From the NCBI GenBank assembly GCA_030167865.1, contig JALAGF010001455.1, positions 1 to 64,000 of the forward strand: a stretch of DNA of 64,000 nt, read 5' to 3'. Both the position numbers and the translations under genes were made by a program. This document shows, piece by piece, positions 2,306-64,000 of the stretch. The DNA is from Craspedostauros australis. Its lineage: Eukaryota. Numbering within the stretch: position 1 is the first letter of the stretch; each line of letters opens with the position of its first letter. The notes beneath the pieces are model-generated. The model was not told the DNA's origin, did no database searches, and was given only the letters and a program-made list of their open reading frames with translations.

Positions 2306-5300
2306 TCACTTGCCTTCTTCGTTGCCTGGCTGCTTCTCGGCTTGTGGGGGTGCAGCAGGTCCTGGCTGGGCCGGTGGACCACCACCGTTTGGATGAGCGC
2401 CTGGTGGCAATGGAACACCGAACACGGCGCCAGGCACCGGCATCCCCATCGGCATTTGTTGCATTCCCGGATGGCCCATGACCATTGGCTGCATTGGTAC
2501 GGGGCCTGATGGACCTGCAACGAATGGCATCATTCCCATGTGCGGCATCATTGGGTACATCATGCCATGTGGGCCAGGGTGAGGTAGCTGCTGCTGTGGG
2601 GGTCCCGCCGGTGGCATCGGCGCTTCCTTGCCTTCCTCTGTGTAAGTGAAATTGAACGAGGACGGCGAGGCGTTCGCGGGGCCTTGGTCGTGCCTCTTGT
2701 TCGACATCATGCGAAGGACCTGATCAGCTGCGGTCTTGGGATGCTGTGGCGGGCCTTGTCCATTTTGGTGCATGACGGGCGGCGCTTGCATGCCAGGCAC
2801 CATCCCAGGCATCATGTGTGGAATTGCCATGTGCATCGGCACTGGCAACGGCAGCGTAGATGCTTGCGGCGGGGGTGGTGGTGGTGGTGGTGGAGGGAAT
2901 CCTGCATCTCCCCCGCCTGACGGAGCCGATGCTGCTCCACCCGAAGTGACACCGAGCAAGCTCTTGAGCCCAGCTGAGGCATCATTTTCTACCGCCCCTG
3001 CCCCTGCTCCAGCTGGCGGTGGTGCTGGTGGCATGGGCACAGCATGAGAGTTGCCAACTCCAAGCATCGCTTTGAGCCCTTCGGCGCTGCTCAATGCTGC
3101 GGGCACGGTAGCCGCAGCAGCTGGAGCGGCAGCGGGTGTTGGATTCGCCTTGCCAGCGCCACCTCCCAAACCGAGCATGGCCTTCAATTGGTTGGCCTTG
3201 TTCTTGTCAGTTGCAGCGGCGGCTGGAGTTGGGGCCGTAGGTGCAGCCGCTGTGGCGGACGGGGCCACCTTTTTCGGCACGGGCGTCGTCTTGGCGACTT
3301 CGCCAGCCTTCTGCTCCATGAGCTTTCTCCAGTTCGCAATGCCACTCTTGCCGACCTTCCGCGCGCCCTTGAAACCGATGCCCTTCGGTGGTGGGCCTTG
3401 AGCCTCCTTCCATCCAGCCTGCTTGCTGCGCGAATCCGACTGAGCACGGCTCCTGGATCCTGCCCGTGATCCTGGATTGGCACGGTTCCTCGATGATGCT
3501 CGGCTTGATCCGCCGGATGGGGTGGGAGTAGTGCTGCGGTTGGGTGCGGTTTCTGCGTGAGTGTTCGAATCGGCCTCGATCTTGGACAGGAGATTGTTCA
3601 TGGCAGCCTTGCCCGCGCCCTTCGCAACGAGCTTGTCGACGACGTCACCGCTACCATCGGCAGAAATCCTCAAGAGGTGCGCCCACATGCAGAGCTTGCC
3701 ACGGAAGTTGGAGCAGTGGCCTTGGAGGGAGGTCCCTCCTACAAATTCCTCGTCCATCACGACTTCCACGCATCCAGTCTTCGCCTCGTGGATCGTGATC
3801 ACGGTTCCTCGGGCTCCGAATGGAATGCCCGTGGCGCACAGATTCACGATGCGGTCACCCAAGCGTGGTTTTTCGTCGTTGTTGAAGTCGCCGGCGAGGA
3901 TGACATCCGTTGCCTCGGTCGAGTTCTCCAAGTACAACGCGCTGGGAGGGATCTTGATGAGCGAGTCTGTTGGGAAGCCCTTCTTCTTGAGCGCGATGTT
4001 GCGCACTTGCGCTGCCTTCTCCACAGCCGCCACAGCATCCTGCGGCATCATTTCGGTGGAGATGGGCGTTCGTGGCAGCTTCGCACTCTCCACGTTGTTC
4101 AGCCACTTGCGGATCATTGGCAGCCACTCGGAACCGTTGGGGCCGAAGATCCTCTTGGCATCGTAACGCTTCTCGTTCGGGAAGTTGGCCAGCACGTGGA
4201 AGAGCTGGGGGAACTGCTGGCGGTACTCGTTCACCAGGCGGATAGCCTTCGGGGTGTACTCCCAGATGATGCGCTCCTTGGTGTCACTATAGCCATCGCC
4301 ACCCTTGCGAGCGCGAGAGCTGCCGACCACCAGAACCGTGTCACCGGTCTCCCAGACGGACTTGGCTTGGTTGGATTTGCCCTTTGGCTTCTCCACACGT
4401 TGGCGCGTGTAACCGGCAACGCACATGCCGTCGGATGACTTCAGATTCAGCCCGAGATCGTACTGGCCAGGCTCGAAGTTCAGGTTGCTCGTGATGCGCC
4501 CGAACAACGAGGGCGCCAGCTTGAGGATGCGGGCAGCGTCGGCCGACGAGATGTAAGATTCGAAGATGCTACGCGCGAGGGCGTGGCCGAAGGGGACTTC
4601 GGGTGGCATCACTTGGACCTTGACGGCCACCTTGTTTGCATCGGCGACGCCTGCAATGGATCCAGAGCATCCACGGTACTTGCCCTTCGTGAGGACGACC
4701 TTGGAGTCTGTTGGGAATCTGTCTGCAATCTGTAGCGGACCACGCTGGATGAAGCGCGGGTCGGGCGCTGGAGCCTGCCAAAGCGCAAGCTGCAGCGGGA
4801 CGTCTGCCAATTCCTTTCCGAACACCTTCTTGGTGGAACCGTCGGAGAGGTTTGACTTCATTCCCTGGAGGGGGTTCACCTTGATTCGGATCTTGACCTC
4901 GCCGATTTCGACACCTCCGGTGCCTGGGATGCCAAGTCCTGTCTTGTATCCCTCCCTCATGCCCTCGGCTTCCTTGATCCACGTGTCCTGCTGCTTCTTG
5001 TCGAAACGTTGCACTTTGTGCTTGCTGTTTCCCTTTCCCTTCGATTTACCCTTTTTCTTGGCGAGTGTCACCTCGCATGTCCTGTCGGAGACTGATACAA
5101 CACGGCCCTCGTGCATCATGGGCCAGTTCACGAACAGCGATTTGCCAAGCACGTTCTCGGCCAGGACTTCGACTGGCGGGAGGGCAGGCATCTCGTGCAG
5201 GGTGAGGAGCGTGTTCGGGTACTTGGACGGCATGCCGAAGCAGTTCACTCGGATTGGTTCCAACTCGGTATTCACGATTGGTAGCACGTTGAGGGACGGA

Positions 5301-8100
5301 AATCCGGGGAAAGGTATCTGGGTGCCCGGGATGAGTTCGGGGCGGAACGAGATGCTGGTGTCGTCCGGTTCCATGATCACGGACACACGGGAATGGCACT
5401 TGACGATGTCCACCAAGCCAATCTTTTTGTTTGGGGAAGGGATAGTGTCGGTGCATGTGAGATCGCGTACGTAGCTGTAGACGTCACCAACTCTGTTGCG
5501 TTTGTTTTCGGCGGCCGATAACTTATCCTTCGGGCAGTACTTCTCGATGGTGCTTTTCAGGAGGTTGCCGTCGATGAATGGGAGGAGGTTGACTCCTTCC
5601 CAGGGATTCTTCTTGCCGTTCATGTCAACCTGGAACGTCTTGGGGTAGAACTGGATGATGGGGGATTGCGGGTCCATCATCAACGAGCGGTACAGTTTCG
5701 GCACGAGCGAGGACGAGGCCGGCGGGAGGCAGGCCATCAGCTGCTGGAAGGGCGTTAAGGGTGCGCCATGTTCGAACTTAATCGTCTCGAACATCTGCGG
5801 GAGGTTGCGGAGATCGCTGAGCATGGGTCCGTAATGGTACGGGAAGTACCATCCCCAGGATATGCAGCCTTTGTAGTAGTACGCCATGCACCACATCAGA
5901 CCTTCGATGTAAGACTTGCGCAATGCATGATGAGCCTCGATGTCGGTTGGTTTTATCGCGAGCTTCTCGAAGTAGTAGCGACCTTTGAAGTCTTTCTCGC
6001 CGGCCTCGACTGGTTTCCAGCCGTCCACGAAGGTGGCGCCTTCCTGGGATAGGATGGAACGCAGCATCGCTTCGAACTCGGTCTGCTTGCCCTCCTCGGC
6101 CTCCGCCATCTGATCGTCCGAGAGGATGGTGCTCTTCTTGCCGTCGCGTTTGTCCCAGCGGCGCTTCTTCTTGACGTACGCAGCATCGTTCTTCTCGCGC
6201 TCCTCGAGGGTGTCCGTTTCCACTTCACCGATCTTCTGGAGGAAGGCTTCCAACCGGGCAGGATCGACGACGTCGCCGGAGTTAGTGAGGTACTGGCCGT
6301 CGCCCCATCCGGACCGCTGCTGCTTGTACACTTCGAACAGCAGATCGAACGCACCCTCGGAGATATCGAGGGTGTTGAGATGCGGCAAGAAGTCGTTGCC
6401 GACGAGGAAGGTGATGAAGACGAAGTCATCGATCGAGTGCTCCAGACTGACCTTGTCGAAGCCCTTGCAAAATTCGATGAAGAGGTATTCGCGCAGCACG
6501 GAGAGATGCAGAAGCTGGAAGTGCGATTCTTCGGTAAACTTCTTGACCTGCTTCAGGGCGTTGTCATTTCTCCTCTTTCCAAATCCAAAATCGACGATCT
6601 CACGCAAGAGAGTGAAGTGCGGTTCGTGCGTGACGAGGCCCAGCATGATGAGATCGGCATCCTGGCCGTACATGCAATGCCTCGTGTTTGGCCTGTATCC
6701 AGGCTGGTTTTTCATCCTGCGGATGTGTTCCATGATCTTGTGCTCTCCCTCCCCTGGGATCTCGTGCCCGCTGAAGATGACGTTGAGGTTCTTCCATTGC
6801 GGGTCTTCCTTGAGCTTCTTTTGGATGAAGTACTTGATGATCTCCGACACCCTGGCCATGAATTCGGTTCCTGGTGTGATGCAGTTTGAATCAAAGACTT
6901 GTACGCCCGGTTGTCCGTCCGAACCATCGATCCCCTTCTCCCTGGTTGCTTCCGCCATGTCCTTCGCGGAGCGGAAGCGCCTCGATCTCTGCTGGTTGAG
7001 CTTGGCGCGTGGTGCCACACCATCGATGGCCATGTACAATGAGACCTTTGGTTTCACGATCTGGATGATACGGTCCAAGTCTGCCCTCAGCGAATGCCAT
7101 GTTTTGATGTTGTTGATTCGTGGTATGTATTGTATGGTGTCGCATGGTGTCGCGTTGATTATATTCGTTGCGCATGTGTGGCGTCAATATTCCAGTTGAA
7201 TTGTTGGTCGGTTTGCCATGCACGCACATGAAAATGAATGTAAGGGAGAGAGAGTGAGCAAGGCAACGTTTTTCAAATTGTACGGAGAGTTGACGCGCAT
7301 ACACCATTGTCCCAGAGTTGCAAGTGTTGCTGACACGTACTCAACTCAATATTCGCCACAGCAGTCGCAGGGACCAAGCGGTTGCACGCAGTCACGACAT
7401 GTTCACTTACAATGCATGATGCCCAGCATCATGTCGCGATCGCTGACAACATCTGAGATGTCGCGGTCTGCGGGATGCGAGCAACCGTGAATGATACCGT
7501 TCATATCCAAGTACAGATGATCGAACTCCGGCAGCAGCGCCGAGTCCGAGATGATCTCATTGATCTTCGGATAGCGCTCGCTGATCCAACGGTAGAACTG
7601 CACTCGTAATTGCGGCGGTGGATTTGCATGAACAATGTGATGGGAGGGATATATGATCACGGCAAAAGACATGTGGCATCCCCCATTGGTCCAGTACGAT
7701 CGATGGTCGTTCACGATGCAAAAAGAAGATGCCGATCGATTCACAAATATAAAGTTAAAGCACAGCAGAAAGAGATGGATTCGTTGGATGAGGTGTTGCC
7801 GTTCGTTGAGTTGGACTCGACCGCTGCTGTCATCATTGTCCGCGATGAAGTTCTGCGCTTCCATCTGACTGCGATCAACGCAATGCTCTTGCACGCTTTG
7901 AATCTGTTCCGAATGAATCAACTCCACTCTTCTCTATCTGTTTCCACCCGCACAACGTTCATGTGACATCGGCCCCCTCGCTTTTCCCAAAGCTGATGAT
8001 ACATTGTGCTTCATGAATCCAAGCGTGCATGAAGTAGAGAGCAGAGTAGTACATGTGTACGAGTACGAGCAACCACACAACGGACCTTTGGAACTCCCAT
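2306..8100 (-). CDS. XRN1: 5'-3' exoribonuclease 1, 3 exons: 8100-8086, 7597-7411, 7080-2306
   Basis: Spliced N-terminus [15 protein letters not shown]...[17 protein letters not shown], then [52 protein letters not shown] and YPYHYGP. Long C-terminal region with an SH3-like [15 protein letters not shown] segment and a Pro/Met/Gly-rich tail. Introns 7598-8085 and 7081-7410 are GT..AG and keep the frame. Confidence 0.95.
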
Positions 8101-9158
8101 GTTGCTTCGTTGTTTTGCTTTGCTTTTGTGTTGGTTGCTGCCGCTGCTGTTCAAGTGACGCCAATGCCACTTCTGGTGCTATGTGGGTGATTGGATTGAG
8201 CTTGCCGATCAATGACGCCGTGGTGTGGTGTGCTCTGGAGTGGAGTAGAGTGGTCTGGGTTTGGTCTGGAAGTGGAGTGCTTCGCTGTTGAAATGCTGAA
8301 TAACTCAGCTGCAGATGTCGAACGGATGACCGAGAGTATGATAGCTGTAGCAGTGACTGTAGCAGTGACTGTAGCTGTATGGCTGCGGATGAAAGTAGGG
8401 ATGAGACGATGAGGACGGAAGCAATCTCAAGAGAGAGATGAATCTTCGGCCGTCTGTTTGTCCAACGGAAAGGCAAACGAGGATACGATCACAAGTACAA
8501 ACCGGTGCCGGTCTCGAACTGTTATTGCTTCTGCTCTCTTTGTTCAGCGTTGGGTTGATCTGCGTCCTGCGTGCCAATGATATAACTCTGTCCACAACGA
8601 CTCGGTGATGGGTGTTGCGGATGCTGTGGCTTCTTCGGCTGGCGACCCCTGTTGACGATGATGATGTCCGATGATGCCTGACGATGATGCAGATAAAGCG
8701 AGGCGAATGGCGATTGTGTGGATTGACTCCAAATGTCCAACGGCGATGTTCTGTTCCCTCCGTCTTCCGTTTCGTCTTTTGGCTTTGGCGCGTTTGGCCT
8801 CCCACCACAAATGCCGAACGGACTTTCTTGTGATGTTTGTTGTTCACATCGCAAAGTCATTGTTCGTGATCCAATGAGTCAGATCGACTGGTGCGATCGT
8901 ATTTGGCGATTGCGGTTCACACAACAATAGTCGTAGCACTCTCATCGGTCGTAGGCCATTGGCATTCTATTATCACCCACTTTGCAGGAGAGTAGAGCAA
9001 TTCAAGTCTTCTGAAGAGGCCGACCAAACCATTATAACATATTATAAATGGTAACCTTCGCTAGACTAAGTCCTGTTGCAGTCATCGTACGGGTGCTATC
9101 ATGTCCACCAATGCAATGGTTAGACTGTGCCGCTCACTTTCCAACAATATTCAACTCC

Positions 9159-10511
9159 TCATCGTTGACGCCTGGTTGCGACGCCGCCTCGTCGCTTTGC
9201 CCTGGTGGATCGGCTCATCTGCGCGACCTGCTTGCGCGTTTCGATCTCCTCGTTGTGCGCCTTCATCTTGGCCGCCTCCGTGGTGGGCTCGCCCTTGGCC
9301 TTCTTCACGAGGTTGTTGAGGGTTTCTTGGAATCCTGCGTCCTGCGCGGCCCCGGGCACCGGCTTGGGTCGTTCCCAGATACCGAAGGCCTCCTTCACCA
9401 TCCCGTTGCGCAGTAATATGGACTGGCCCATGCTGAAGAGGTTGTTGGGGACCCAGTAGCACAGCATGGCGGCAGGGAACGTGGTCATGACGGGCACCAT
9501 GACGACGGCCATGGCGCGGAAGGCATTGACCATGACGGGGCCGTACTTGGGGTTGGAATCCATCATCTGCTCCTTACCGGCCTCGATGGTGGCGAGGAAC
9601 GTCATGCCGCACGTGATGGGAAGGATGAAGGTGGGATCCGCCACGGTGAGATCCGTGAACCAGGCAAGGCCACCGGTGGACAGCTCGGTCGGGAACAGGT
9701 CGGGCATCTTCTTCATCCCGAAGAACATGCCGATGAACAGCGGCGCCTGGATCATCGGTGCTGCCATGGCAGCGAACGGCTTCACGTCGTACTTTTTGAA
9801 CACGGCCTTCATCTGGTCGGCGAAGACCTTCTGCTCGGCCTGCGTTGGCGTTCCGAGCTTCTCGTAGCGTTCCTTCAGCTGCGCCAGCTCCGGTTGCAAA
9901 TGCGCCATGCGCGATGCGGCGCGCTGTCCGCGGATGGCCAATGGCAGGATCAGCATGCGCAATGTGCATGTCACAGCGACGATGGAGGCGGCGTACTCCA
10001 ACCCGGTCATGTCATGCACCAAGTGCACACCATTGACGGCCTGATCGGCAAGGTTGTACCACGATGGCTCCCACGCAACTGACGCCGCCTGGTCGAGGAA
10101 CCATTCGTCGCTGCCATCCTGAGCGACCTTCTGAGTATCGTGGAACAGCTTGTCCATGGTGTCTTCGAAGGCGGGTTGCGATGCTCCGGCTGCAGTTGCG
10201 GTGCTGGTCACGTCCGCGCCCGTGCTGGTCGAATTGAAGCGCCTTTGGTCCATGCCACGCAGCTCCATCCTGTTCCGCATGCCCATGCCGACGCTGGTCG
10301 TGTGCAGCTTCATCGTTTGCTGAAGACGATGATGCATGGACGAATTTCTGCCCACGTCAATGGTCATTGACGCCGGTGTCACCAAACCCGCGGCATCAGA
10401 CCCTTTGGCATTGGCATTGCTTTGTCCAAGGACGGATGCCACTCGCTGCCGCACGACGACGTTGCCGTGCTGCGCCTGGAAGCGACCAAGGCTGGAAACA
10501 GATCGCAACAT
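9159..10511 (-). CDS. OXA1: Mitochondrial inner-membrane insertase, OXA1/YidC family
   Basis: First ATG at 10511 gives an Arg/Ser-rich presequence (MLRSVSSLGRF). Family motifs: SIVAVTCTLRMLILPL, QAPLFIGMFFGM, GGLAWFTDLTVADPTFILP and YWVPNNLFSMGQ. Confidence 0.9.
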   Translation of the reverse strand: MLRSVSSLGRFQAQHGNVVVRQRVASVLGQSNANAKGSDAAGLVTPASMTIDVGRNSSMHHRLQQTMKLHTTSVGMGMRNRMELRGMDQRRFNSTSTGADVTSTATAAGASQPAFEDTMDKLFHDTQKVAQDGSDEWFLDQAASVAWEPSWYNLADQAVNGVHLVHDMTGLEYAASIVAVTCTLRMLILPLAIRGQRAASRMAHLQPELAQLKERYEKLGTPTQAEQKVFADQMKAVFKKYDVKPFAAMAAPMIQAPLFIGMFFGMKKMPDLFPTELSTGGLAWFTDLTVADPTFILPITCGMTFLATIEAGKEQMMDSNPKYGPVMVNAFRAMAVVMVPVMTTFPAAMLCYWVPNNLFSMGQSILLRNGMVKEAFGIWERPKPVPGAAQDAGFQETLNNLVKKAKGEPTTEAAKMKAHNEEIETRKQVAQMSRSTRAKRRGGVATRRQR

Positions 10512-54131: not shown

Positions 54132-56630
54132 ATGTTGGCGCGATGGTTGGACCGTGATGGCATCGGACAGATGCTGGCACCGGACGAGGTGGTGGCCAAG
54201 GAACCCGTTGGGGATGACAAGAACAACTGGTTCTGGCAGATCGTGGCGCCAGATCCGAAGTTCGATCCCATCAAGGCACCGCCGGAAGAGGCCTTCCTGG
54301 TTGCCAAGATCAATGCTTTGCGCAACAGCACGGTTGCGTGTCAGCATTGCGGCAAGCAGACCAGCATCGCAAGTGCCTTTGGGGGTGGCGCGGTTGTTCC
54401 GCCTCTCAATCCGCAGCAGGCAGATGCTGCGTCTACTGCTGCTGCAGTTCCTGACAGTCCCGTAGTTTCGGACACCCCTGCATCGACCATTCCACCACCA
54501 GCACAAGCCCGCAGTTCCACGGAGCCGGTCCTGCCAGTCGCGGCAGTTCCAGAGACGCCACAGCCGTCCGAAATGCAGCACAAGGCAATGATGCTGCAAA
54601 CGCCATCGCCCGGCCACCCAATCACGGCCGCTTCTGGAGCCGTGGATCCTGCTTACAGCGGCAGGCCGTACAAATCGGATTCCGCGATCCAACTGGAGCA
54701 GCTGGTCCTATCCGCCGCCATGGAAACGGCCAGGAGCATGCACTCGCCGCCCAACCAAGCGGAGCAGCGCAACAAGATCTTCCGCATCTGCGGCAACCAC
54801 AAACCGCTCAATGACAAGCTCTCGGCAAGACTGCGCAAGTTGTTGACCAACGATCCCACCTTGCTCAATGCCCGCGCGACGCATCTTGGAATGCTGGTGC
54901 CGGATGGATACACGTGCTTCATGGCGGCTGCGCATGCGGGCAACGTGGAGGCTGCCAACATCGTGCTCGATGTCGCCTCCGCGCAAAACCAGGATGGCGA
55001 TGCCAGCATCACGGCCGATGTGGAGATGGATCGCGATCTGCAGGGACGCACGGCTCTTCACATCGCAGCCGAGATGGGGCATGTGGAGATCGTGGAGCTG
55101 CTGCAAGCCAGGCACGATGGTGATGCCATCGACGTTGGCACCGCCATTGGCGCAACGGACGAAACTTCCAAGCAGGATGATCCAGCAACAGCGAAGCAGC
55201 AACGACAGAAGAACAAGCAGATGCAGGCGCCTCTCGTGGACTTGCTGGGACGAACACCGTTCGGCCGCGTCATGACGTCACCCAATCCGAAGGCGCGCAA
55301 GAAGCAGAGAGAGCTGGAGCAGATCCTCTTCTCCCCCGTCGACTCCTCCATCCGCGGCGTCCCGAATCCGCTCTCGGAACGTGTCGGCGCCGACATGCTC
55401 TACAGGCAGCTCAAGGTCTTGTACGGCATTGCGGACATGCCCGGGATGAGGGTCACCATGGAGGATGCCATCAGCACGGCCTCCTGGAAGGACCCGACAA
55501 CGCAGGAGTACTTCACCTTGCTTGGTGTGTGCGATGGCCACGGCGATCACGGCCAGGTGTCCAAATTCATCGCCGACACAATTCCAAACAAGCTGCGAGA
55601 TATCCTCAAGGTGGAGCAGGAGGTCGTCATGGACAACAGCGGCGGCGATGCTCTACCAGCCGCACTGGATTGGCAAGCGATTTGGACGAAGACGTGCATG
55701 GAGACGGACATGCTGCTGCGTCAAGCGGCGCTGAAGGGCGGATCAACCGGCGTCTTCGCATTAATCACGGAAAAGTCCATCATCGTTGCCAACGTTGGCG
55801 ACAGCCGCAGCATCCTGGTGCAGTCCTCGGCAGGCATCGAACGCGCGCCAGAATCCATCGGATTGGAATCGGCATTGGAGCAGTTGCAATTGGGAGCAGC
55901 AACTGTCGCTGGGGATACAGCTGCCGAAACAAATTATCCCGAGGCCATCGATCAAGACGAGCCGCATCTGGTGAATGAGGAAGGATCAGACGAACAGCAA
56001 TCAGCTGATGACAAGCCAGCAGCGGCATCGAACAACGATGACGGTGCCGACAGCGCTGATGGCATCAACGTCATCCCGATGTCATTCGACCACAAACCAG
56101 ACAAGGAGGCAGAACGCATCGAGAATGCCGGACTCAAGGTCCAAGAGAGCAGGTTCATCGATGAGAATGAAAAGGAGCTGGTGTTCCACAAGATCATTCG
56201 ATCCAACGGAGACCAGCTTGCCGTTTCCCGCGCCTTCGGCGACTTCGAATACAAGACGAACAAGACGTTGGGACCCGAAGAACAGGCCGTCATCGCCGTG
56301 CCGGACGTGAAGATCCACCCACGCAACGTCCAGGTGGATCTGTACTTGGTGCTGGCATGCGACGGTATCTGGGACGTCATGTCCAACGTGGAAGTCGGCA
56401 AGTACGTGTCGCAGGAAATGGATGCGATCAAGACGCAGCCGCGACGCATCGATTCCACCGTATTGCCGCAGGTCGGCGATGCCTTGCTGTCCACCTGCTT
56501 GGACAAGGGTTCGCGGGACAACATGTCGGTCGTGCTGGTGGCGCTCAATCAAGGTGCGGAGCCGTTGGCACCGATCTCGGAGAGCAGCGGCGGCGATGAT
56601 GATGCCGTCAAGACTCTTAGCTTCGCTTGA
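54132..56630 (+). CDS. Ankyrin-repeat / PP2C (PPM) protein phosphatase fusion
   Basis: Ankyrin repeats GYTCFMAAAHAGNVE, GRTALHIAAEMGHVEIVELL and GRTPF. PP2C motifs MPGMRVTMEDA, GVCDGHG, GSTG, ANVGDSR, DHKP, LAVSRAFGD, LACDGIWDV and GSRDNMS. Confidence 0.9.
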   Translation: MLARWLDRDGIGQMLAPDEVVAKEPVGDDKNNWFWQIVAPDPKFDPIKAPPEEAFLVAKINALRNSTVACQHCGKQTSIASAFGGGAVVPPLNPQQADAASTAAAVPDSPVVSDTPASTIPPPAQARSSTEPVLPVAAVPETPQPSEMQHKAMMLQTPSPGHPITAASGAVDPAYSGRPYKSDSAIQLEQLVLSAAMETARSMHSPPNQAEQRNKIFRICGNHKPLNDKLSARLRKLLTNDPTLLNARATHLGMLVPDGYTCFMAAAHAGNVEAANIVLDVASAQNQDGDASITADVEMDRDLQGRTALHIAAEMGHVEIVELLQARHDGDAIDVGTAIGATDETSKQDDPATAKQQRQKNKQMQAPLVDLLGRTPFGRVMTSPNPKARKKQRELEQILFSPVDSSIRGVPNPLSERVGADMLYRQLKVLYGIADMPGMRVTMEDAISTASWKDPTTQEYFTLLGVCDGHGDHGQVSKFIADTIPNKLRDILKVEQEVVMDNSGGDALPAALDWQAIWTKTCMETDMLLRQAALKGGSTGVFALITEKSIIVANVGDSRSILVQSSAGIERAPESIGLESALEQLQLGAATVAGDTAAETNYPEAIDQDEPHLVNEEGSDEQQSADDKPAAASNNDDGADSADGINVIPMSFDHKPDKEAERIENAGLKVQESRFIDENEKELVFHKIIRSNGDQLAVSRAFGDFEYKTNKTLGPEEQAVIAVPDVKIHPRNVQVDLYLVLACDGIWDVMSNVEVGKYVSQEMDAIKTQPRRIDSTVLPQVGDALLSTCLDKGSRDNMSVVLVALNQGAEPLAPISESSGGDDDAVKTLSFA

Positions 56631-57389
56631 GGTTGACGGTGGCGGTCAAACTGATGCCACATTCTTGGTGGCATTTCACGATTACCAAGCACGCGAGTAC
56701 AACAAGGGACGAGGTCGCCGTCAGGCAGAGCGGGAGCATTCGACTGCTGGAACAATACAGACGAGACAAGGCAGTGAAGCTCCTGTACTCTTCTCGAATA
56801 GATGCGCAACAACATGGAAACGAGACTGCCGTACACACTCTAAAATAAACGAGAAGTGCCATAGAGTAGACAAACAACACATCAGGTCGTTGTCATTGCT
56901 CGAGTGCTGCTACTGTTACGATGACGGTTGTGTCGGCTGTCACTGCATCCGGATCCACACAATAACAATAACAACGACGGTGACGACAACGACATTCGCT
57001 GTGTTTCAGAAAAGGCATTTCATTATTTTGCTTATTTGCTTCGTGTTGCTGTTGCGCGTAATACGTGATGAATGGATCTGTTCGCGGCGCTTGCATGGTC
57101 TGCCAACAATCCACGATACCGGTGGGCTTGCTTTCAAGAGTAAGCAAGACAAACGATCGTCCTTGATTGACTGTTGCATTGCCGACAATTACCAACGATG
57201 TCATTCTCTGCTTCTTTCTCTGTCTCTCTCTCTCTTTGTTTTCATGTAGCGGTATTCTGCCAGCTTGACTTTTTCACTTGCTCCTTGCTGGCTGCTGTTG
57301 TCTTTTACTTGTAACATTGATTGCTGAACCTGTTGCATTGCATTGCGCTGCATGCAACTAGCCATCATTCTCTAACGCTCGTAGTATGT

Positions 57390-59561
57390 TCAATTGATCT
57401 TCTCCTCACCTTCCGTGAACTCGGCAAACTTGCTGAGGTCTGGGAGGGATGGTCGTCGGAATCCATCTGGCATGGTGATGGTGCCCTTGCGGCAGCACAC
57501 CACCATGTGCGGGATGTTGACGCCCAAGATCTTGCGCTGGAATCGTGCGATGGTCTTGGTGTACTCGTCCTTGGCGAAGACCTTGTTGAGGATGACGTCG
57601 CGGGTCTTGGCCTCAATGCGGACACCGTCCTGCTTGTACCAGGTGCGGATGAGGAAATCCTTGAAGGTGTTGCCAGCCTCGCTGTAGGTGTCGAAATCGG
57701 CGACGAGCACACGTCCTTGTTCGGAAAGCAAGACCTTTCCGGAGACGAGGGCCTCCTCCCATCGTGGGATCATGGAGAGAGAGTAGCTGAACGTGATGGT
57801 GTCGAATCCGCGGTTCAAGTCGGCGCCGGTGATCTTGGCGAGCTGCTCCTTGACGTCGTGGGCGTTGATGTCGAGGCAGACCCATTTGATCCTGGCGCAC
57901 TGCTCCTCTGTGAAGGACTTCTTGGCGCTGTCTTCTCCGATCTGAAGCAATTCTGGGCAAATGTCGAGGACGATGATGGATTCGAACTTGTCGAGCTGGG
58001 AGCGGAGGTAGTGCACGTTGCGGCCTGTTCCGCCACCGACATCGAGCCATGTCATGCCGTCGCGGACTGGACCGAATGCGGACATCATGTCCGGGCGTCC
58101 GACGAGCATGTTCTCACGAACGGCGTCGTACCCCTTGGCCTGGGCGGCGTAGAAGGAGGACATCTTGTCACCGTGCGCGCTGACACGCCCGGCAGTGATG
58201 GGGTGGAGGATCATCTTGGTGGTGGTGATGAATTTTCTCCAGGTGGAGGCCTTCTGACATGGCGATGGCTCGATGTCAACGAACGGGAAGTCGTCACGTG
58301 GCATGTAGGAGAGGAATGTGCCTGGGTACATCTTGACACGGTCCTTGGGGTACCACTTGGGGCTCAGGTCGTCAATGTCGAGGTTGTTGAAGAATGGCTT
58401 GTCCTCCATGTGGGTGAAGGCAGAGCGCCACAAGATCTTGGCGCCTGGAACGGTTGCGCGCTGCAGGGCGATCCACTCGTCATGGACCATGGAATTTGGC
58501 ATCCAGTCCATGTGATCGAGCAGGACGAGCTTGGTGAAGCTGTGCGGCTTGACGCGTTCCATGGTGTCCTGCACGGTGGCGTGGTGCCACTCGAAGCACG
58601 AGGCGTTGGCGCGAAGGCTGTCGAAGTGAGCCTTCTTGAGGGTTCGTGGGCAGCAGTCCTGGTCCTTGTAACCCTTCTCGTAGTAGAATCGGTAGAAGTA
58701 GTTGGTGCGACCGAATTCCGGATCGAGGAAGATCTCCTTGAGGATTCCCTCGTAGAATTCGACGGTGTAGAACTCCGGCCCGACCTGGTTTGGTGGCACT
58801 CCGGCGAATGGCGCGAGGATGCCTGGGAAGAGGCGGCGGAACCATCTGGCGGAATTCTCAATGACGTGGTAGTTTTCCTGCATGTACTTGTGAGAGAATC
58901 CGGTCTCAGCCCATGCCTTGACGTCGAAGCCGACGGAGTACATGAGGAAGGGGATGAGGTACTTGGCGGCGAATCCGCACGAACCGGAATTGGCAAAGCC
59001 CTTGCGGAAGACGCGCTCAATGCGGCCGTCCCACCACTTGCGTCCGCCGGCGGACATGGTGTGTCGCATGCGCTTCCACACGCGCAGCACGATGTCGACA
59101 TCGGAGCTGCCCCAAATTCCCCACCATTCCTCGTAGGTGAGCTTGGGGTCGCGCAGCATGCGGATCTTGAGCTCGAAGAGCCAGAGCTGGTGCTGGTTCA
59201 TGTCGCAGACGACGATCTTTTCTGGCCCCTCGATGGCGTAATCCAGGACGATGTCACCGGCGGAGCAGATTCGGAAAATCACGTCGTCGCTCTTGAGTTT
59301 GAGAATTTGGTGATCAACAGCAGGATCCTCCCAGCAGATGTTGTAGATGTAGGTGCGATTGACGATTGTGTCGATCATGTTGATGGACTTCTTCACGAGT
59401 GCCAGCGCCACCACGGAACCCGCAACACCAGCGGCTGCCATGCCGACGGTTGGGTTGATGTCGGCCTGAGCCTTGGTGACGGCAGTCGTCACGACAGTCG
59501 TCACAGCAGTCGTGACCGCATCGACCGCCTGGTCGAACATTTTCTGGGCCTTGACGCTCAT
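57390..59561 (-). CDS. BTA1: Betaine lipid (DGTS) synthase, BtaA(DUF3419)-BtaB(methyltransferase) fusion
   Basis: BtaA-like N-part: YIYNICWEDPAVD..ICSAGD..DMNQHQLWLFELK, NYFY, LDHMDW, ILWRSA, DRVKMY. BtaB-like C-part: SFYAAQAKGYDAVRE.ML.GR, WLDVGGGTGRN, VLDIC, ITFSYSLSMIP, VADF. Confidence 0.88.
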   Translation of the reverse strand: MSVKAQKMFDQAVDAVTTAVTTVVTTAVTKAQADINPTVGMAAAGVAGSVVALALVKKSINMIDTIVNRTYIYNICWEDPAVDHQILKLKSDDVIFRICSAGDIVLDYAIEGPEKIVVCDMNQHQLWLFELKIRMLRDPKLTYEEWWGIWGSSDVDIVLRVWKRMRHTMSAGGRKWWDGRIERVFRKGFANSGSCGFAAKYLIPFLMYSVGFDVKAWAETGFSHKYMQENYHVIENSARWFRRLFPGILAPFAGVPPNQVGPEFYTVEFYEGILKEIFLDPEFGRTNYFYRFYYEKGYKDQDCCPRTLKKAHFDSLRANASCFEWHHATVQDTMERVKPHSFTKLVLLDHMDWMPNSMVHDEWIALQRATVPGAKILWRSAFTHMEDKPFFNNLDIDDLSPKWYPKDRVKMYPGTFLSYMPRDDFPFVDIEPSPCQKASTWRKFITTTKMILHPITAGRVSAHGDKMSSFYAAQAKGYDAVRENMLVGRPDMMSAFGPVRDGMTWLDVGGGTGRNVHYLRSQLDKFESIIVLDICPELLQIGEDSAKKSFTEEQCARIKWVCLDINAHDVKEQLAKITGADLNRGFDTITFSYSLSMIPRWEEALVSGKVLLSEQGRVLVADFDTYSEAGNTFKDFLIRTWYKQDGVRIEAKTRDVILNKVFAKDEYTKTIARFQRKILGVNIPHMVVCCRKGTITMPDGFRRPSLPDLSKFAEFTEGEEKIN

Positions 59562-61005
59562 CTTTTCGTCGTTGCCGTTTGGTTTGAGTTGGAGTTATCT
59601 CCTCCTGCTCTCTGTCTCTGCGCATGTGCATGGCAGAGCGATAAAATGAGAATGCATCAGCACATTTCGCACATGATGACGAGGTTGAGGAATTGGCATT
59701 CCGATGGTCGCATCGGATCGCATCAGATCGAATGATTTGAATGCGGATTCAACCGATGTCGCAAATGCGATGGTGAATGCATGATGATGAAAAATGAACG
59801 ACGGCAACGGCCAGAGTAGGAAGAGAGGAAGATCAAATGGACCAGGATGACCAATGGCGGATTTTTGCAATGCGGAATCAAAGGCGACGGAGTGGGTTCA
59901 AACGCACGAGAAGAGATTTGTGAGAAAGGGGATGATGTAGTCGCATGAATAATGCACTCTGATATAGTGTTGAGGACTCCATGCAAAACGCACAGGGTTA
60001 TGGAGAGATAGGATTTGCAAGTGTGTTCCACATCGGTACGGATAGAGTGACGACGGCCAATGACGTGCAAAAATACGAAAATAAAGATCTTCTTCAATCT
60101 TTGTCTGAATTTGGCGACGACTATTGCTGCGCCATTCTCCCATTGTTCACCATCACACTCCCACAGCAGCAGCAGCGATCATTGAGCCAGAGTCAATGTC
60201 AACGCCAGTATCATCGCCAATGCACTGGCGAATGACCGTTTGGGGTGACTCGACATGACATGATCCCCCAATTGCCATGCGACCAACGCGTGACCTGCCA
60301 ATTCATGCAGGTTGATGCATTGATGAAGAGACGACGGATGACCCCTTGCCGTGAGAGTCCATTGCAGTGGCCAATTGCATCAACAGCAAAATCCATCGTC
60401 GGCGCGAGTTTCCGAAAACAAGATCCGAAGGGAATTCGCAGATCTCTGAAGATCGTCATCCGCAAAAGGGAACAGATTTCGCAGGTTTCACCATCCGCAC
60501 GATCACCAGTTGGATAACCACCAAGATGGTGACGCTCCATGGCAGGAGGCATAGAGCCAGGTATGGTATCGTATTGCCGACGACGCTGACGATGATGAGC
60601 ACTCACGTTTCCAAATCCAAGATTGTGAATGCACGTGCTTCAGAAGCATGGGTGTGGAACTGTGCTGTTTTTGTTGTTGTGGTTGTTTTCGGAGTGTGTT
60701 TGGTGGGTGGCTCGTTGGTTGGTTGGTTGGTTGGGTTGGTTGGTTGGCTGTTTCGTTGCTGGTCGGAAGCCGTCGCAGCCGCATACTTTTGGGCGCTCTT
60801 GTGTGTGTGGTGGCGGGAAATGCGTGACGTGCGAGGTCGCGAAGCGAGGTGCAAAGGATCTTGCGGAACTTTCGTTGTTTGCCTCTCGCCATCTATCGCG
60901 CATCGCTCATTCACGCTTCTACGCGTGTGGGTGCGTTGTTGTGTCGTTGTTGTTGAACTCAAATCGAGCTCGTCGTTTGTGTCCCACGAAATCGGACTCG
61001 GCAAA

Positions 61006-61095
61006 CGAATCTCTTTCATTACTATTCTTAATAGGTTTATGTGCTTTCATATTGAATCTTGGAAAAGCAAGAGATTCCCTCCAAATCCGAATCTT
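61006..61095. promoter_or_regulatory. Cluster of YGAATCTH phosphate-starvation-response (PSR-type Myb) motifs
   Basis: CGAATCTC 61006-61013, TGAATCTT 61053-61060 and CGAATCTT 61088-61095, plus a near-match GGAATCTC on the minus strand at 61071-61078. They lie in an AT-rich patch between two divergent lipid genes. Confidence 0.65.
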
Positions 61096-61798
61096 TGTGA
61101 TCGGTGAAGTCGTTTTCGTCATGTGGATCAAATTCAGTCACCAGCACATCGTCACACACAAAGGTTTATGATTGGCTGATTGCGAAGCAGGACGACTGTC
61201 CTTGGGTGCAAGTCATCATTGGAAAAGCAGTGAATTGCACCAATGACATCAACTGTTTTGAAAATTCAGAGTAGTCACATGAGTCACACGAGCAACCAAC
61301 AGCCGCCACGTCATGTTGAGCGCCAGCCATCACACATCAACACTCTTCTCCAATGCCAAAAGTAGTCAGACGCCACGAACGAGTCAAATGCCGAAGATCG
61401 ACAAACGCCGATCCAACGTCACGATGGTGATGGGGCAACCGACGTCCGGACCATCGAGAAGAAGGCAGGTGCAGAAACGGCGCCAACGCGAACCGAAGCC
61501 ACCTCTCCCCGCGCGTGTGTGTGCAAGAAGAACGCCGTGCTCGCAGCGACGATCCGGTCGGCCACACGTCCACATCGCAGCAATTCAGATCTTTGGTCAA
61601 ATCTCTTGCGCGGCAACCCATCAAAACTGACTTGTGCAGATCCATTCCGAACATAGCACAACAAAGTCCAATACTCTACTTTGCCTTCGTGCCACAATCA
61701 AGTCAACACCGATCCATCGACCCATCAATCGCCCCATTCGTCCCAACCACTGAGGCAACTGGAACAGAGCGCAGAGTGCACAGCACAAAACAGCAAAG

Positions 61799-63574
61799 AT
61801 GGCATCCAAGACAGGCGCCGGCAAGAAGGAGCTCGCCAACCTGTACAGCTTCGAGTCCATCTTCATCTCGAAGAAGGCGTACGAATATGTAGCATCCGAA
61901 TTCCATCCTTACCACAAGCATGAGCTCAACGTGCTCCTGCATGTCTTCACCACAGGATTCGGCCTTTGGGGTGCCTTCCAGCTGGCCGCCGAGCTCGATG
62001 CGGTCGCCGCCGTCTACGCTTACGCGGCCATCATTGCCCTCACGACTCCAGTCCCAACGGCATTGCTCCACACCGCCTTCGTCGCGGGATGCCTCCAGGT
62101 CCCCGTCTCGGCATTGGGACTGGCCTACGATCCCATCGTCACATGCGTCGGGGCCATCGCCGCTGGCTACGGTCTGCAGGACGTCGCCCACTACCTGTGC
62201 GATGAGAAGACCATGATGTCCTCGTACATCGGCACCAACCCAGCCATGCTCATCGTCCACACCCTCTGGCTCATGCCGCTGGTCATCGATTCCGTCCTCA
62301 TGCGTCACTTCTTCCTCCCGAAGATCGTCAACCGCAATCGCAACATTGTGTGCGACGTCGCCTCTCGCAAGGCCGTCGAGGATCTCCGCAACTTCATCAA
62401 CGAGAACGTGGAGGAGAAGCCGGAGACCACCCACCTGTGGCCGCATGACCACAAGGCCATCGACAAGGCCTCCACCGATTTGGAGAACGATGCCGGCGTC
62501 ATGGCGGGATTCCGCAAAATCTTCGCGCCGCAGCACTTCGACGTCAAGCCCGTCGTCGGCATGAACGAGATCTACGTCACCGCCGTGGGTGCCATCAAGG
62601 AGATCACCTCCGATGCGGTCTTCTACACACCGCACACCGACGGTCCCTACTGGTTCCTCCCAGGCGCATCTCTCTACCGCGTCCTGGTCGGCGTCACCCC
62701 CAACACCATGGTCCGCACCAATTTCAACCTGCAGCACGAGACCGAGAGTCAGATTCTGGACATGTACGGAGTGGTCGGATTCGATTACAACCGCGAGCTG
62801 CACTGGATCGACCACGTCCCAGGCGAGAAGAACAAGGAACGCCGATCGCTGCTCAAGCTGCATTACATCGTCTACCCCAAGGGATGGCACCGTTACGGCG
62901 CTCTCTGCGCCTATTTCAACACTTCCTACAACACGTGGGCCCGATCCAACTTTCTCCTCACCCTGCGCCCAAAGACCGCCTACGAAAACACAGTCGCTTG
63001 GTGGATCTGGATCACCACGTGGAGCAACTCCATGTTCGAGATGTACATCGGTTGGAGCAACGTCGTCTATCTGCTCGGATGCTTCGCCCTCGGACCAACT
63101 CCATTCCTGGTCCTCACATCCTTCCGTCACTACGCCGTCTACATCACCACCTTCGCCTACCGCAAGCCAGCCGTCGCGCACGGTTACCTCATGCGCGATG
63201 CCAAGTTCTTCAAGACCGTCGCCCTGATGCACCTGTCCCGTCGTCTGCTGCCACTCGTGGAGCTCCCATCCGACATTCCAGGCGTCCTCCTCGCCGCCAC
63301 AGGCTTCTCCATCACCATCCTTGCCACCGTCCGTCTGGGCATGGTCCGCACCTACTTCGGTTCGGAGCTCGACTTCGTCAAGCCAGAATGGATCAACGGA
63401 TTCCCGTACGGCACCATCCCACACCCCATGATCGTCGGCCAGCTCATCGCCTACAGCTCCATCCTCACGTGGTTCTGGGACAAGCTGACCACAGAGACCG
63501 TCGCTCTGATCGGTGCGCATATGTCGTGTTATGTCACCCACATGGTCCAGGAGATGCTCACCTCTAGCTACTAA
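61799..63574 (+). CDS. Uncharacterised multi-domain membrane enzyme: Mpo1/DUF962-like + HxD..H Fe(II)-dioxygenase-like + PEMT-like
   Basis: Intronless 591-aa ORF with strong codon bias. N-terminal FHPYHKHELNVLLH..GYGLQDVAHYLCDE; middle FYTPHTDGP..YRVLVG..FDYNRELHWI..RSLLKLHY; C-terminal RLGMVRTYFGSELD..GFPYGTIPHPMIVGQ. Confidence 0.85.
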   Translation: MASKTGAGKKELANLYSFESIFISKKAYEYVASEFHPYHKHELNVLLHVFTTGFGLWGAFQLAAELDAVAAVYAYAAIIALTTPVPTALLHTAFVAGCLQVPVSALGLAYDPIVTCVGAIAAGYGLQDVAHYLCDEKTMMSSYIGTNPAMLIVHTLWLMPLVIDSVLMRHFFLPKIVNRNRNIVCDVASRKAVEDLRNFINENVEEKPETTHLWPHDHKAIDKASTDLENDAGVMAGFRKIFAPQHFDVKPVVGMNEIYVTAVGAIKEITSDAVFYTPHTDGPYWFLPGASLYRVLVGVTPNTMVRTNFNLQHETESQILDMYGVVGFDYNRELHWIDHVPGEKNKERRSLLKLHYIVYPKGWHRYGALCAYFNTSYNTWARSNFLLTLRPKTAYENTVAWWIWITTWSNSMFEMYIGWSNVVYLLGCFALGPTPFLVLTSFRHYAVYITTFAYRKPAVAHGYLMRDAKFFKTVALMHLSRRLLPLVELPSDIPGVLLAATGFSITILATVRLGMVRTYFGSELDFVKPEWINGFPYGTIPHPMIVGQLIAYSSILTWFWDKLTTETVALIGAHMSCYVTHMVQEMLTSSY

Positions 63575-64000
63575 AGAGACAGATAGACAGACCGCAACGA
63601 ATTATATCAGAAAGCAGAGGGGTCTGACGCGTATTTGAGCGAGAGTGAAAGTCACTTTCATGTCAGGCCTTGTTGCTGATGTTATTGTTCCATCTTCTCC
63701 TTGCGAGTACGCGGACATCAGAAGACTCTTTGTCGCATTATTATTATCAGTATCCAAGAGACAAGCATTTAACAATTTAATCTATTTGAACATACCACAG
63801 AGTTGAGTGGGGCAGAGCAATTGATTGCTGAGGATGGTGCGTTACGGAGTGCTGTCCGAAGTAATGATTCTTGTGGTGTTCTCGCAGAACGAAGATTTCG
63901 AAAATGTTCCGCTCACTCGCAGAAATTGAGCGATGTGACCAACATGATGAACCCCAGGCAAGGATCGAACTCAAAAGCATCACACGACATCATAACCTTG

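Follow-up and report, generated by a model that had tools for sequence, protein, structure and literature searches.

We examined a stretch of 64,000 nt from contig JALAGF010001455.1 of Craspedostauros australis, the whole of which is referred to below as the window, and found in it a BTA1-type betaine-lipid synthase gene that diverges from a gene for a three-domain membrane protein, here termed the partner. Our best explanation is that the pair works as a betaine-lipid module in phosphate starvation, in which BTA1 would produce diacylglyceryl trimethylhomoserine (DGTS) from diacylglycerol and S-adenosylmethionine, a reaction established for its family and predicted here, and the partner would be a membrane-embedded tailoring enzyme acting on this product. 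We consider it very probable that the partner acts in the betaine-lipid pathway. Conversion of DGTS to its isomer diacylglyceryl hydroxymethyltrimethyl-β-alanine (DGTA) is the best fit to the distribution of the partner family and to a gap in the literature, and we assign it a probability of roughly 0.55, with substrate, product and domain roles all predicted. The partner is interpreted as a tailoring enzyme because it co-occurs and is co-regulated with the synthase and is optional where the synthase is common. An initial annotation of this DNA had named it a candidate DGTS-modifying enzyme, a prediction supported by an oxygenase core with an invariant HxD...H motif and by linkage of its homologues to btaA and btaB in planctomycetes.

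The strongest single argument for a shared pathway is this bacterial operon, which is independent of any synteny in diatoms. Using a single planctomycete family member as the query, which found three loci in metagenome-assembled genomes (MAGs), we obtained matches to the partner at E<=1e-10 in 22 of 401 Pirellulaceae genomes, whereas btaA is present in 280 of the 401; in a phylum-wide sample the only match among 401 genomes was the query genome itself. Because the partner is found in so much smaller a share of the Pirellulaceae genomes than btaA, it is accessory to the synthase there, as a product-modifying enzyme would be. Flanking genes were examined at 20 loci of Planctomycetota. In 19 of them btaB is immediately followed, on the same strand, by the homologue, btaA is present in 18, and a gene for a calcineurin-type metallophosphoesterase, presumably of the phospholipid-degrading PlcP type, stands upstream in 18. 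All four genes occur in the order phosphoesterase-btaA-btaB-partner at 17 of the 20 loci, and one further contig starts at btaA.

Several observations on individual planctomycete genomes accompany this pattern. In a Rubripirellula MAG (L083), Pfam recovers DUF3419 (E 9.6e-122), a methyltransferase, PEMT, Metallophos and a phosphate-selective porin, and the porin gene (O/P type) is divergent from, and upstream of, the phosphoesterase-btaA-btaB-partner series (4497-5942, minus strand; 6772-7839, plus strand), an arrangement that would fit a Pho-regulated locus. Several genomes with a btaA 66-75% identical to that of the operon type (among them G686, G737, G747 and G547) gave no match to the partner, and for this reason the gene seems to have been gained or lost among close relatives in the Pirellulaceae. 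One genome (G783) keeps only a 65-residue remnant of the partner, and one of the loci (L123) looks degraded.

Linkage to the synthase recurs in diatoms in a different form. A scan of metagenome contigs gave 80 loci with a partner homologue, 21 of diatom type and 59 non-diatom, and tblastn with the window BTA1 matched five of the 80, in each case on the strand opposite to the partner and upstream of it. Fourteen of the diatom-type loci have less than 820 bp of upstream sequence and are uninformative, while the seven with at least 1.3 kb represent five distinct contigs (L014 equals L017, L005 equals L006 and L019 equals L020). The head-to-head pair is present in four of these five, with spacers of ~0.96 to 2.9 kb, and the BTA1 of the window is 76-82% identical to that of the other diatom contigs. 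An ankyrin-PP2C phosphatase gene accompanies the pair: in the window, L008, L014/L017 and L019 it is found on the far side of BTA1, in L013 it is encoded on the strand opposite to the partner and downstream of it, and its copies (L006 1731-4058, L014 2918-4921, L019 2334-4730 and L008 1-1278) share 35-41% identity. At three loci the tblastn match to the partner is longer than the longest open reading frame (ORF; L014 8173-10161, L019 10007-11908 and L013 1295-3253), which suggests an intron or insertion in these copies of the gene, whereas it is uninterrupted in the window.

One of these contigs connects the pair to published expression data. Two of three PtBTA1 primers published in a preprint match both ends of a 2427-bp ORF in L008, the third having no match in any locus, and the partner ORF of L008 starts 1209 bp from the ATG of that ORF. 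A supplementary table places Phatr3_J42872 (BTA1) on chromosome 1 at 1375904-1378330 (plus strand) and Phatr3_J42871, listed as 'predicted protein', at 1372880-1374694 (minus strand). Since the 2427-bp length and the 1209-bp gap are equal in L008 and in these coordinates, we identify L008 as Phaeodactylum tricornutum and Phatr3_J42871 as the partner orthologue from this sequence correspondence. The orthologue was not among the 120 matches listed in the protein searches.

Under prolonged phosphorus (P) depletion, the tabulated log2 changes are 2.94 for J42871 and 3.20 for J42872; at the two time points of Alipanah 2018 they are 2.45 and 2.90 for J42871 and 2.31 and 2.73 for J42872. In an SPX knockout, the changes with and without phosphate are +1.44 and +1.46 for J42871 and +1.98 and +1.45 for J42872. 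In these table entries the two genes are co-induced by phosphate depletion and de-repressed in the SPX knockout. The co-induction anticipated in the initial annotation is seen in two data sets, both from P. tricornutum only, and its description of a co-regulated mini-cluster is borne out by this response, by the SPX knockout, by recurrence of the pair in diatoms and by clusters of GAATCT cores in the orthologous spacers. The identifiers J42871 and J42873 were not found in the paper texts searched.

The spacer between the two genes has a GC content of 0.47-0.53, against 0.57-0.62 in the two coding sequences, and carries three copies of the motif YGAATCTH within 90 bp (Table 1). Three copies within 100 bp arose in one of 300 first-order Markov simulations of 64 kb and in none of 2000 simulations of the spacer. 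A dense cluster of this motif had been claimed earlier, and as a local feature of three copies it stands; the motif is not enriched over the window as a whole, where 13 copies were found against 14.45 expected. The orthologous spacers of L008 and L013 each hold four of the five YGAATCTH matches of their locus, that of L019 holds three of six together with five GAATCT cores within 70 bp, and that of L014/L017 holds one of four together with three GAATCT cores within 40 bp. A single spacer with GAATCT-core sites would drive both genes, and the synthase and its modifier would rise together when phosphate is exhausted. YGAATCTH is presumably the site recognised by PtPSR, a Myb factor of P starvation, and the identity of the regulator of the pair is likewise a prediction. 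No relevant paper on YGAATCTH was found in the literature searched, and an Rfam scan of 56600-64000 gave no family at the gathering score. The middle of the spacer contains a GT-rich low-complexity tract of repeated GGTTGG units (60690-60760), and 60697-60758 was set aside as a repeat in the comparison with sequencing reads. Four ORFs in the spacer (60526-61107 and 60629-61171 on the plus strand, 60503-60892 and 60603-61019 on the minus strand) were considered as genes and rejected, as they look like products of the composition of this tract.

The minus-strand gene is predicted to be a fused BTA1-type betaine-lipid synthase because a DUF3419 domain of BtaA type (E 2.2e-65) is followed on the same chain by an S-adenosylmethionine (SAM)-dependent methyltransferase domain. 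Six class-I methyltransferase families of Pfam (Methyltransf_23, 12, 31, 25 and 11 and Ubie_methyltran) match at residues 498-634, four of the six at or above their cut-offs, and NCBIfam gives UbiE-type matches with scores below its cut-offs. The start codons of BTA1 and the partner face away from each other, and ORFs, Pfam matches, structural model and the measured spacer agree with the initial description of a betaine-lipid synthase and a 591-residue three-domain membrane enzyme diverging from ~2.2 kb of shared sequence. Its account of both genes as intronless, codon-biased and open in antisense likewise holds. Both coding sequences are uninterrupted, with GC contents at third codon positions of 0.81 (BTA1) and 0.82 (partner), and neither contains a single TTA, CTA or TCA codon, which is why the codon-aligned antisense frames are open over all 724 and 592 codons, respectively; the corresponding frame of the neighbouring PP2C gene has eight stops. 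We infer high expression of both genes from this codon bias only.

Table 1. Features of the gene pair and its surroundings, in window coordinates.
Feature	Position	Strand	Description and basis
BTA1-type betaine-lipid synthase coding sequence (predicted)	57390..59561	-	723 residues, no intron, BtaA-like then BtaB-like; ORF, Pfam
BtaA-like domain (DUF3419, PF11899), residues 68-417	58311..59360	-	Pfam, 221.7 bits, cut-off 28.2
BtaB-like SAM-dependent methyltransferase domain, residues 499-634	57660..58067	-	Pfam
Spacer between divergent start codons, presumed bidirectional promoter	59562..61798	.	2237 bp between the two ATGs
Three YGAATCTH motifs	61006, 61053, 61088 (61006..61095)	+	fourth GAATCT core at 61072, minus strand
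Partner coding sequence, three-domain membrane protein	61799..63574	+	591 residues, no intron; ORF, AlphaFold2 model
Partner N-terminal helical membrane domain, residues 1-177	61799..62329	+	weakly Mpo1-like
Partner central Fe(II)/2-oxoglutarate-oxygenase-type double-stranded beta-helix (predicted), residues 178-362	62330..62884	+	structure search
Codons of the putative iron triad	H279 62633-62635; D281 62639-62641; H335 62801-62803	+	
Partner C-terminal helical membrane domain, residues 363-591	62885..63571	+	PEMT/ICMT-like
Ankyrin-PP2C phosphatase gene	54132..56630	+	Pfam; syntenic neighbour, not claimed for the pathway

A small public sequencing run, whose kind we guess to be RNA, contains two contigs that are 100% identical to 57300-57993 and 63195-63700, corresponding to the 3' ends of the two genes, with mean word depths of 53.8 and 17.1. 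This run holds nothing between 57993 and 63195, and no conclusion on expression is drawn from it.

The partner was modelled with AlphaFold2 using an alignment of 49 relatives, and the model is confident (predicted local distance difference test, pLDDT, 93.3; predicted template modelling score 0.89), with helices at residues 9-176 and 364-588 on either side of a beta-rich core (178-362). A wide structure search with VIA-align over 48,161 representatives from the PDB gave 50 listed matches, all aligned to model residues 166-420, with Z scores of 9.0-11.4. Oxygenases or hydroxylases, nearly all of the 2-oxoglutarate (2OG)/Fe(II) type, account for 47 of the 50 by title; the other three are an uncharacterised protein, a chain of an RNA-editing complex and vaccinia C16. 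The best match is 5c5t_A (Z 11.4, root-mean-square deviation 3.7, 157 aligned residues), and agreement with the oxygenase fold in Foldseek is weaker (best E 1.8e-3, probability 1.00). Based on these models and matches, we are confident that the centre of the partner adopts a double-stranded beta-helix fold of the Fe(II)/2OG-oxygenase type.

Residues H279, D281 and H335 do not vary among the 49 sequences, which span 30-73% identity, and they persist in all groups compared (diatom, green-algal, haptophyte, Chromera, planctomycete and myxobacterial members); R349, K353 and H355 are also kept in every group. In the model, H279-x-D281...H335 has the form of a typical HxD...H triad followed one strand later by a basic residue. 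R349 and K353 sit on that strand, and either may bind the C5 carboxylate of 2OG. H335 is assigned as the distal ligand because of its strand position in the AlphaFold2 model, not from measured geometry. No curated 2OG family of Pfam matched at E<=10 in four members, and none matched at E<=0.01 in the 49. A sequence search of the PDB with the profile of the whole family returned only a chance match (tektin, E 5.8). The central domain has the 2OG fold and motif and belongs to no described family.

The two flanking domains are less sharply defined by profiles. The C-terminal domain scores 22.8 bits against PEMT (PF04191; cut-off 25) in the window protein and 36.3 bits in the bacterial homologue of L083, and 47 of the 49 family members match PEMT at E<=0.01 over their last ~100 residues (best E 6e-10). 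Its conserved residues run P536-Y537 ... H542-P543-M544-x-x-G547 ... H574 ... Q584-E585, and H542-P543-M544...G547...E585 resembles what we take to be the PEMT/ICMT family motif, with P-H-P-M-I in the partner where that family presumably has R-H-P-x-Y. Folded alone, the domain reaches a pLDDT of 91.9. Its best structural match is the ICMT 5vg9_A (Z 6.7, root-mean-square deviation 4.0, 119 aligned residues), a value within the noise for helical proteins, and 4a2n_B reaches Z 5.1. The top structural matches include ICMT, steroid 5-alpha-reductase and sterol reductase, the ICMT entries not being separated from unrelated helical ones, and a sequence search of the PDB with the domain profile gave nothing.

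At the other end, the N-terminal domain matches the Mpo1-like family (PF06127) weakly in the window protein (10.1 bits, E 0.91), above the cut-off of 24 in one relative (P0079, 25.9 bits) and at E<=0.01 in 8 of the 49 family members. Residues H39, H48, Q127, H131, E136 and H154 are conserved in it, and it adds a third, possibly iron-dependent part to the protein. Oxygenase fold, invariant HxD...H and PEMT-like domain thus agree with the initial annotation, which had read the partner as an oxygenase/methyltransferase-like fusion with Fe-binding motifs.

The partner belongs to a large uncharacterised family. In a word-indexed protein search, 167 of 8000 scored candidates matched at E<=0.001, and the best 120 of these 167 relatives are 55-75% identical to the partner; close relatives named among the matches listed come from Nitzschia, Seminavis, Fistulifera, Mayamaea, Entomoneis and a transcriptome labelled Thalassiosira. 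In an exhaustive search 592 cluster representatives matched at E<=1e-3, and 133 did so at E<=1e-30; many are full-length at 30-37% identity. Among the distant members named are Chromera velia, Diacronema lutheri and a Chaetoceros debilis cluster, and others come from Mantoniella beaufortii, Tetraselmis, Prorocentrum minimum and MAGs of Planctomycetota and Myxococcota. In a FastTree phylogeny of 75 members, a diatom clade (support 100) stands apart from the rest, with the window protein next to a Nitzschia sequence. One sequence labelled Thalassiosira oceanica (P0289, THAOC_30326) lies inside the Mamiellophyceae clade, far from the diatoms, and is 77% identical to the homologue on the Micromonas-like contig L030; this placement suggests green-algal DNA in that assembly, or gene transfer. 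Source databases name several relatives 'phospholipid methyltransferase', a label that is probably misleading, judged from domain content, because the match covers one of three domains, the last.

Giant viruses also carry the family, with 109 stretches in IMG/VR matching the partner. Most viral homologues are short and comprise the oxygenase core and some helices, such as the 384-residue form in L135. One virus (L171, 9791-11500) encodes a 569-residue form in the permuted order oxygenase, PEMT-like, Mpo1-like, beside a capsid-like gene at 7691-9166. Because all three parts are present there in permuted order, the sequence shows them to be separable modules that are kept together.

Further points favour the partner as a tailoring enzyme, most likely one that converts DGTS to DGTA. 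The partner has a membrane oxygenase centre that would be capable of radical chemistry on unactivated carbon; solved enzymes of similar fold include some that decarboxylate or rearrange their substrates (TraH, AndA, AsqJ and SnoK); the N-terminal domain resembles a family acting on 2-hydroxy acids; and the named eukaryotic carriers overlap lineages reported to make DGTA. In the proposed mechanism, the PEMT/ICMT-like and Mpo1-like helices would anchor the enzyme in the endomembrane and, at the membrane surface, would bind the head group with its quaternary ammonium. The Fe(II)/2OG centre formed by H279, D281 and H335, with 2OG probably held by R349 or K353, would abstract a hydrogen from the homoserine moiety, and this abstraction would set off a sequence in which the alpha-carboxyl is lost and then placed again on the adjacent carbon. 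The Mpo1 reaction is a decarboxylation, and the Mpo1-like domain may supply the decarboxylating half. We would give even odds to the specific form of this proposal, in which the DGTS-to-DGTA enzyme is a single three-domain membrane protein whose Fe(II)/2OG centre and Mpo1-type decarboxylating domain move the carboxyl.

The lipid records of the carriers are in part consistent with this assignment. DGTA is reported for P. tricornutum, where it is the major betaine lipid, and for P. lutheri, the lipid classes of Chromera velia include both DGTS and DGTA, and Ostreococcus tauri is reported to have DGTA as its sole betaine lipid and to express a BTA1 when P is depleted. The named carriers of the family, among them diatoms, Diacronema lutheri, Chromera velia and Mantoniella, overlap the lineages reported with DGTA. 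The initial annotation had held that no enzyme is established for the head groups of DGTA or of diacylglyceryl carboxyhydroxymethylcholine (DGCC), and a 2023 paper states likewise that for DGTA neither the enzyme nor the mechanism is known, and for DGCC nothing at all (PMC10685587). In the literature searched, no DGTA-making enzyme was named, and newer claims, for example after 2023, could exist.

Several findings weigh against this interpretation. The assignment of DGTS-to-DGTA conversion is a prediction from sequence and model, and both the Mpo1-like and the PEMT matches of the window protein fall below the Pfam cut-offs. According to the 2023 paper, the published model of DGTA formation has the carboxyl of DGTS lost and replaced, by decarboxylation and recarboxylation (PMC10685587). 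The formal 1,2-carboxyl shift named in the initial annotation must be squared with this loss and replacement, and the partner has no recognisable carboxylase part. The published model of DGTA formation also includes re-acylation.

The distribution of the family is a further difficulty, the overlap with DGTA lineages being only part of the picture: it extends to lineages of DGCC type and to others for which DGTA is not known. The family is found in centric diatoms, while Thalassiosira pseudonana is reported to use DGCC by an unknown pathway. One paper calls the betaine lipids of Mamiellales DGTS, the isomers not being separable there. Planctomycetes, a Myxococcota MAG, Tetraselmis and Prorocentrum all carry the gene, and we know of no DGTA from any of them.

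Linkage also has its exceptions. Synteny of the pair, which holds in four of the five distinct informative diatom contigs, does not extend to the 59 non-diatom metagenome loci, mostly Mamiellophyceae-like, none of which has a BTA1 relative in flanks of up to 10 kb; the neighbours in the Micromonas-like L030 are an ABC ATPase, a cyclophilin and an Ocnus-family protein, with nothing lipid-related. BtaA or BtaB was found within 10 kb in none of the best 80 of the 109 giant-virus loci, and in one planctomycete locus (L110) the gene stands alone, unlinked to btaAB. The pair is absent from one diatom contig (L005/L006), where the ankyrin-PP2C gene lies directly upstream of the partner and BTA1 appears to have left an otherwise conserved block. 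As the ankyrin-PP2C gene is syntenic with the pair as well, some of the linkage seen in diatoms may reflect no more than microsynteny.

The alternative that survives best, although we regard it as unlikely, is that the partner tailors betaine lipids in some other way, by hydroxylating the head group or an acyl chain, by forming DGCC, or by demethylating or breaking down DGTS when phosphate returns. Linkage and co-induction speak for it as much as for DGTA formation, and 2OG oxygenases most often hydroxylate or demethylate, with prolyl and lysyl hydroxylases, PhyH and ectoine hydroxylase among the structural neighbours of the core. Presence of the family in centric diatoms and a dinoflagellate, DGCC in T. 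pseudonana with its pathway unknown, and planctomycetes, from which we know of no DGTA, point the same way. A role in DGCC formation only is hard to reconcile with O. tauri, in which DGTA is the sole betaine lipid, given that Mamiellophyceae carry the family. Hydroxylated DGTS is, to our knowledge, not a reported major lipid of P. tricornutum, whereas DGTA is the major betaine lipid there, and two additional conserved membrane domains, each with invariant His and Glu residues of its own, would be superfluous in a simple hydroxylase.

It is improbable that the partner belongs to the P-starvation lipid-remodelling regulon and acts on another lipid, through oxidative demethylation or degradation of phosphatidylcholine or phosphatidylethanolamine head groups or Mpo1-like alpha-oxidation of 2-hydroxy fatty acids. 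This idea draws on the PEMT-like and Mpo1-like domains (47 and 8 of the 49 members), on the phosphoesterase gene at the start of the bacterial operon, presumably of PlcP type, and on the viral homologues with no BtaA or BtaB nearby. However, the partner follows btaB in nearly all of the bacterial loci and occurs only in a subset of btaA genomes, and its fixed neighbour in diatom contigs is BTA1 and not a phospholipase. That the adjacency is inherited microsynteny and the co-induction a side effect of the shared spacer, with no tie to betaine lipids, is very improbable: the conserved ankyrin-PP2C neighbour and the lack of linkage in green-algal-type and viral contigs would suit it, but chance synteny in diatoms cannot explain the operon association at 19 of 20 loci in unrelated Planctomycetota.

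Betaine lipids replace phospholipids in much of the P-poor ocean, and DGTA is the form used by diatoms, brown algae and others; of the enzymes behind these head groups, only the DGTS synthase is known. The enzyme converting DGTS to DGTA has reportedly been sought since labelling work in 1992. Conversion by the partner, if true, would close a gap in lipid biochemistry more than 30 years old, correct the widespread database label noted above, provide a gene marker that separates DGTA from DGTS producers in metagenomes, and extend what 2OG oxygenases are known to do by an unusual reaction. The complete copies after btaAB in planctomycetes would then mean that marine bacteria also make DGTA-type lipids, the complete or permuted copies in giant viruses that viruses remodel betaine lipids in infected algae, and DGTA in seawater would not be a purely eukaryotic marker. 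With Phatr3_J42871 there is a specific candidate gene that can be tested in a model organism open to transformation, and the compact bacterial operon could be expressed as it stands.

Compared with known systems, the partner core has the fold, the HxD...H motif and a conserved basic residue on the following strand, as in 2OG oxygenases that decarboxylate or rearrange their substrates (TraH, AndA, AsqJ and SnoK) or hydroxylate them (P4H, PhyH and EctD). It differs in being 7-17% identical to solved 2OG chains, in matching no 2OG family of Pfam, and in its insertion between two polytopic membrane domains, an architecture that we know from no characterised 2OG oxygenase. Likeness to the membrane SAM methyltransferases PEMT/Opi3 and ICMT consists of the profile match of the last ~100 residues and covers one of three domains, with a structural Z of 6.7 that is within noise. 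Yeast Mpo1, of the Pfam family '2-hydroxy-palmitic acid dioxygenase Mpo1-like', is resembled through a weak, repeated match and conserved histidines; unlike Mpo1, this domain is fused to two others in the partner, and it is C-terminal in one giant-virus form. The ornithine-lipid hydroxylases OlsC, OlsD and OlsE offer a parallel in logic, since they too are oxygenases that modify a P-free lipid product in some strains only, whereas they hydroxylate and an isomerisation is proposed for the partner.

Among known systems the partner's neighbour also has counterparts, the bacterial BtaA and BtaB proteins and the BTA1 fusion of algae and fungi, with which the window gene shares both defining domains, here on one chain. 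Its domain order is BtaA then BtaB, presumably the reverse of that in Chlamydomonas BTA1. A P-starvation setting is common to the window BTA1 and to bacterial btaAB, which stands beside a phosphoesterase and a phosphate porin. Known BtaA/BtaB systems, however, end at DGTS with two activities, whereas here a third conserved gene is attached, head-to-head with the synthase in diatoms and as the next gene of the operon in planctomycetes.

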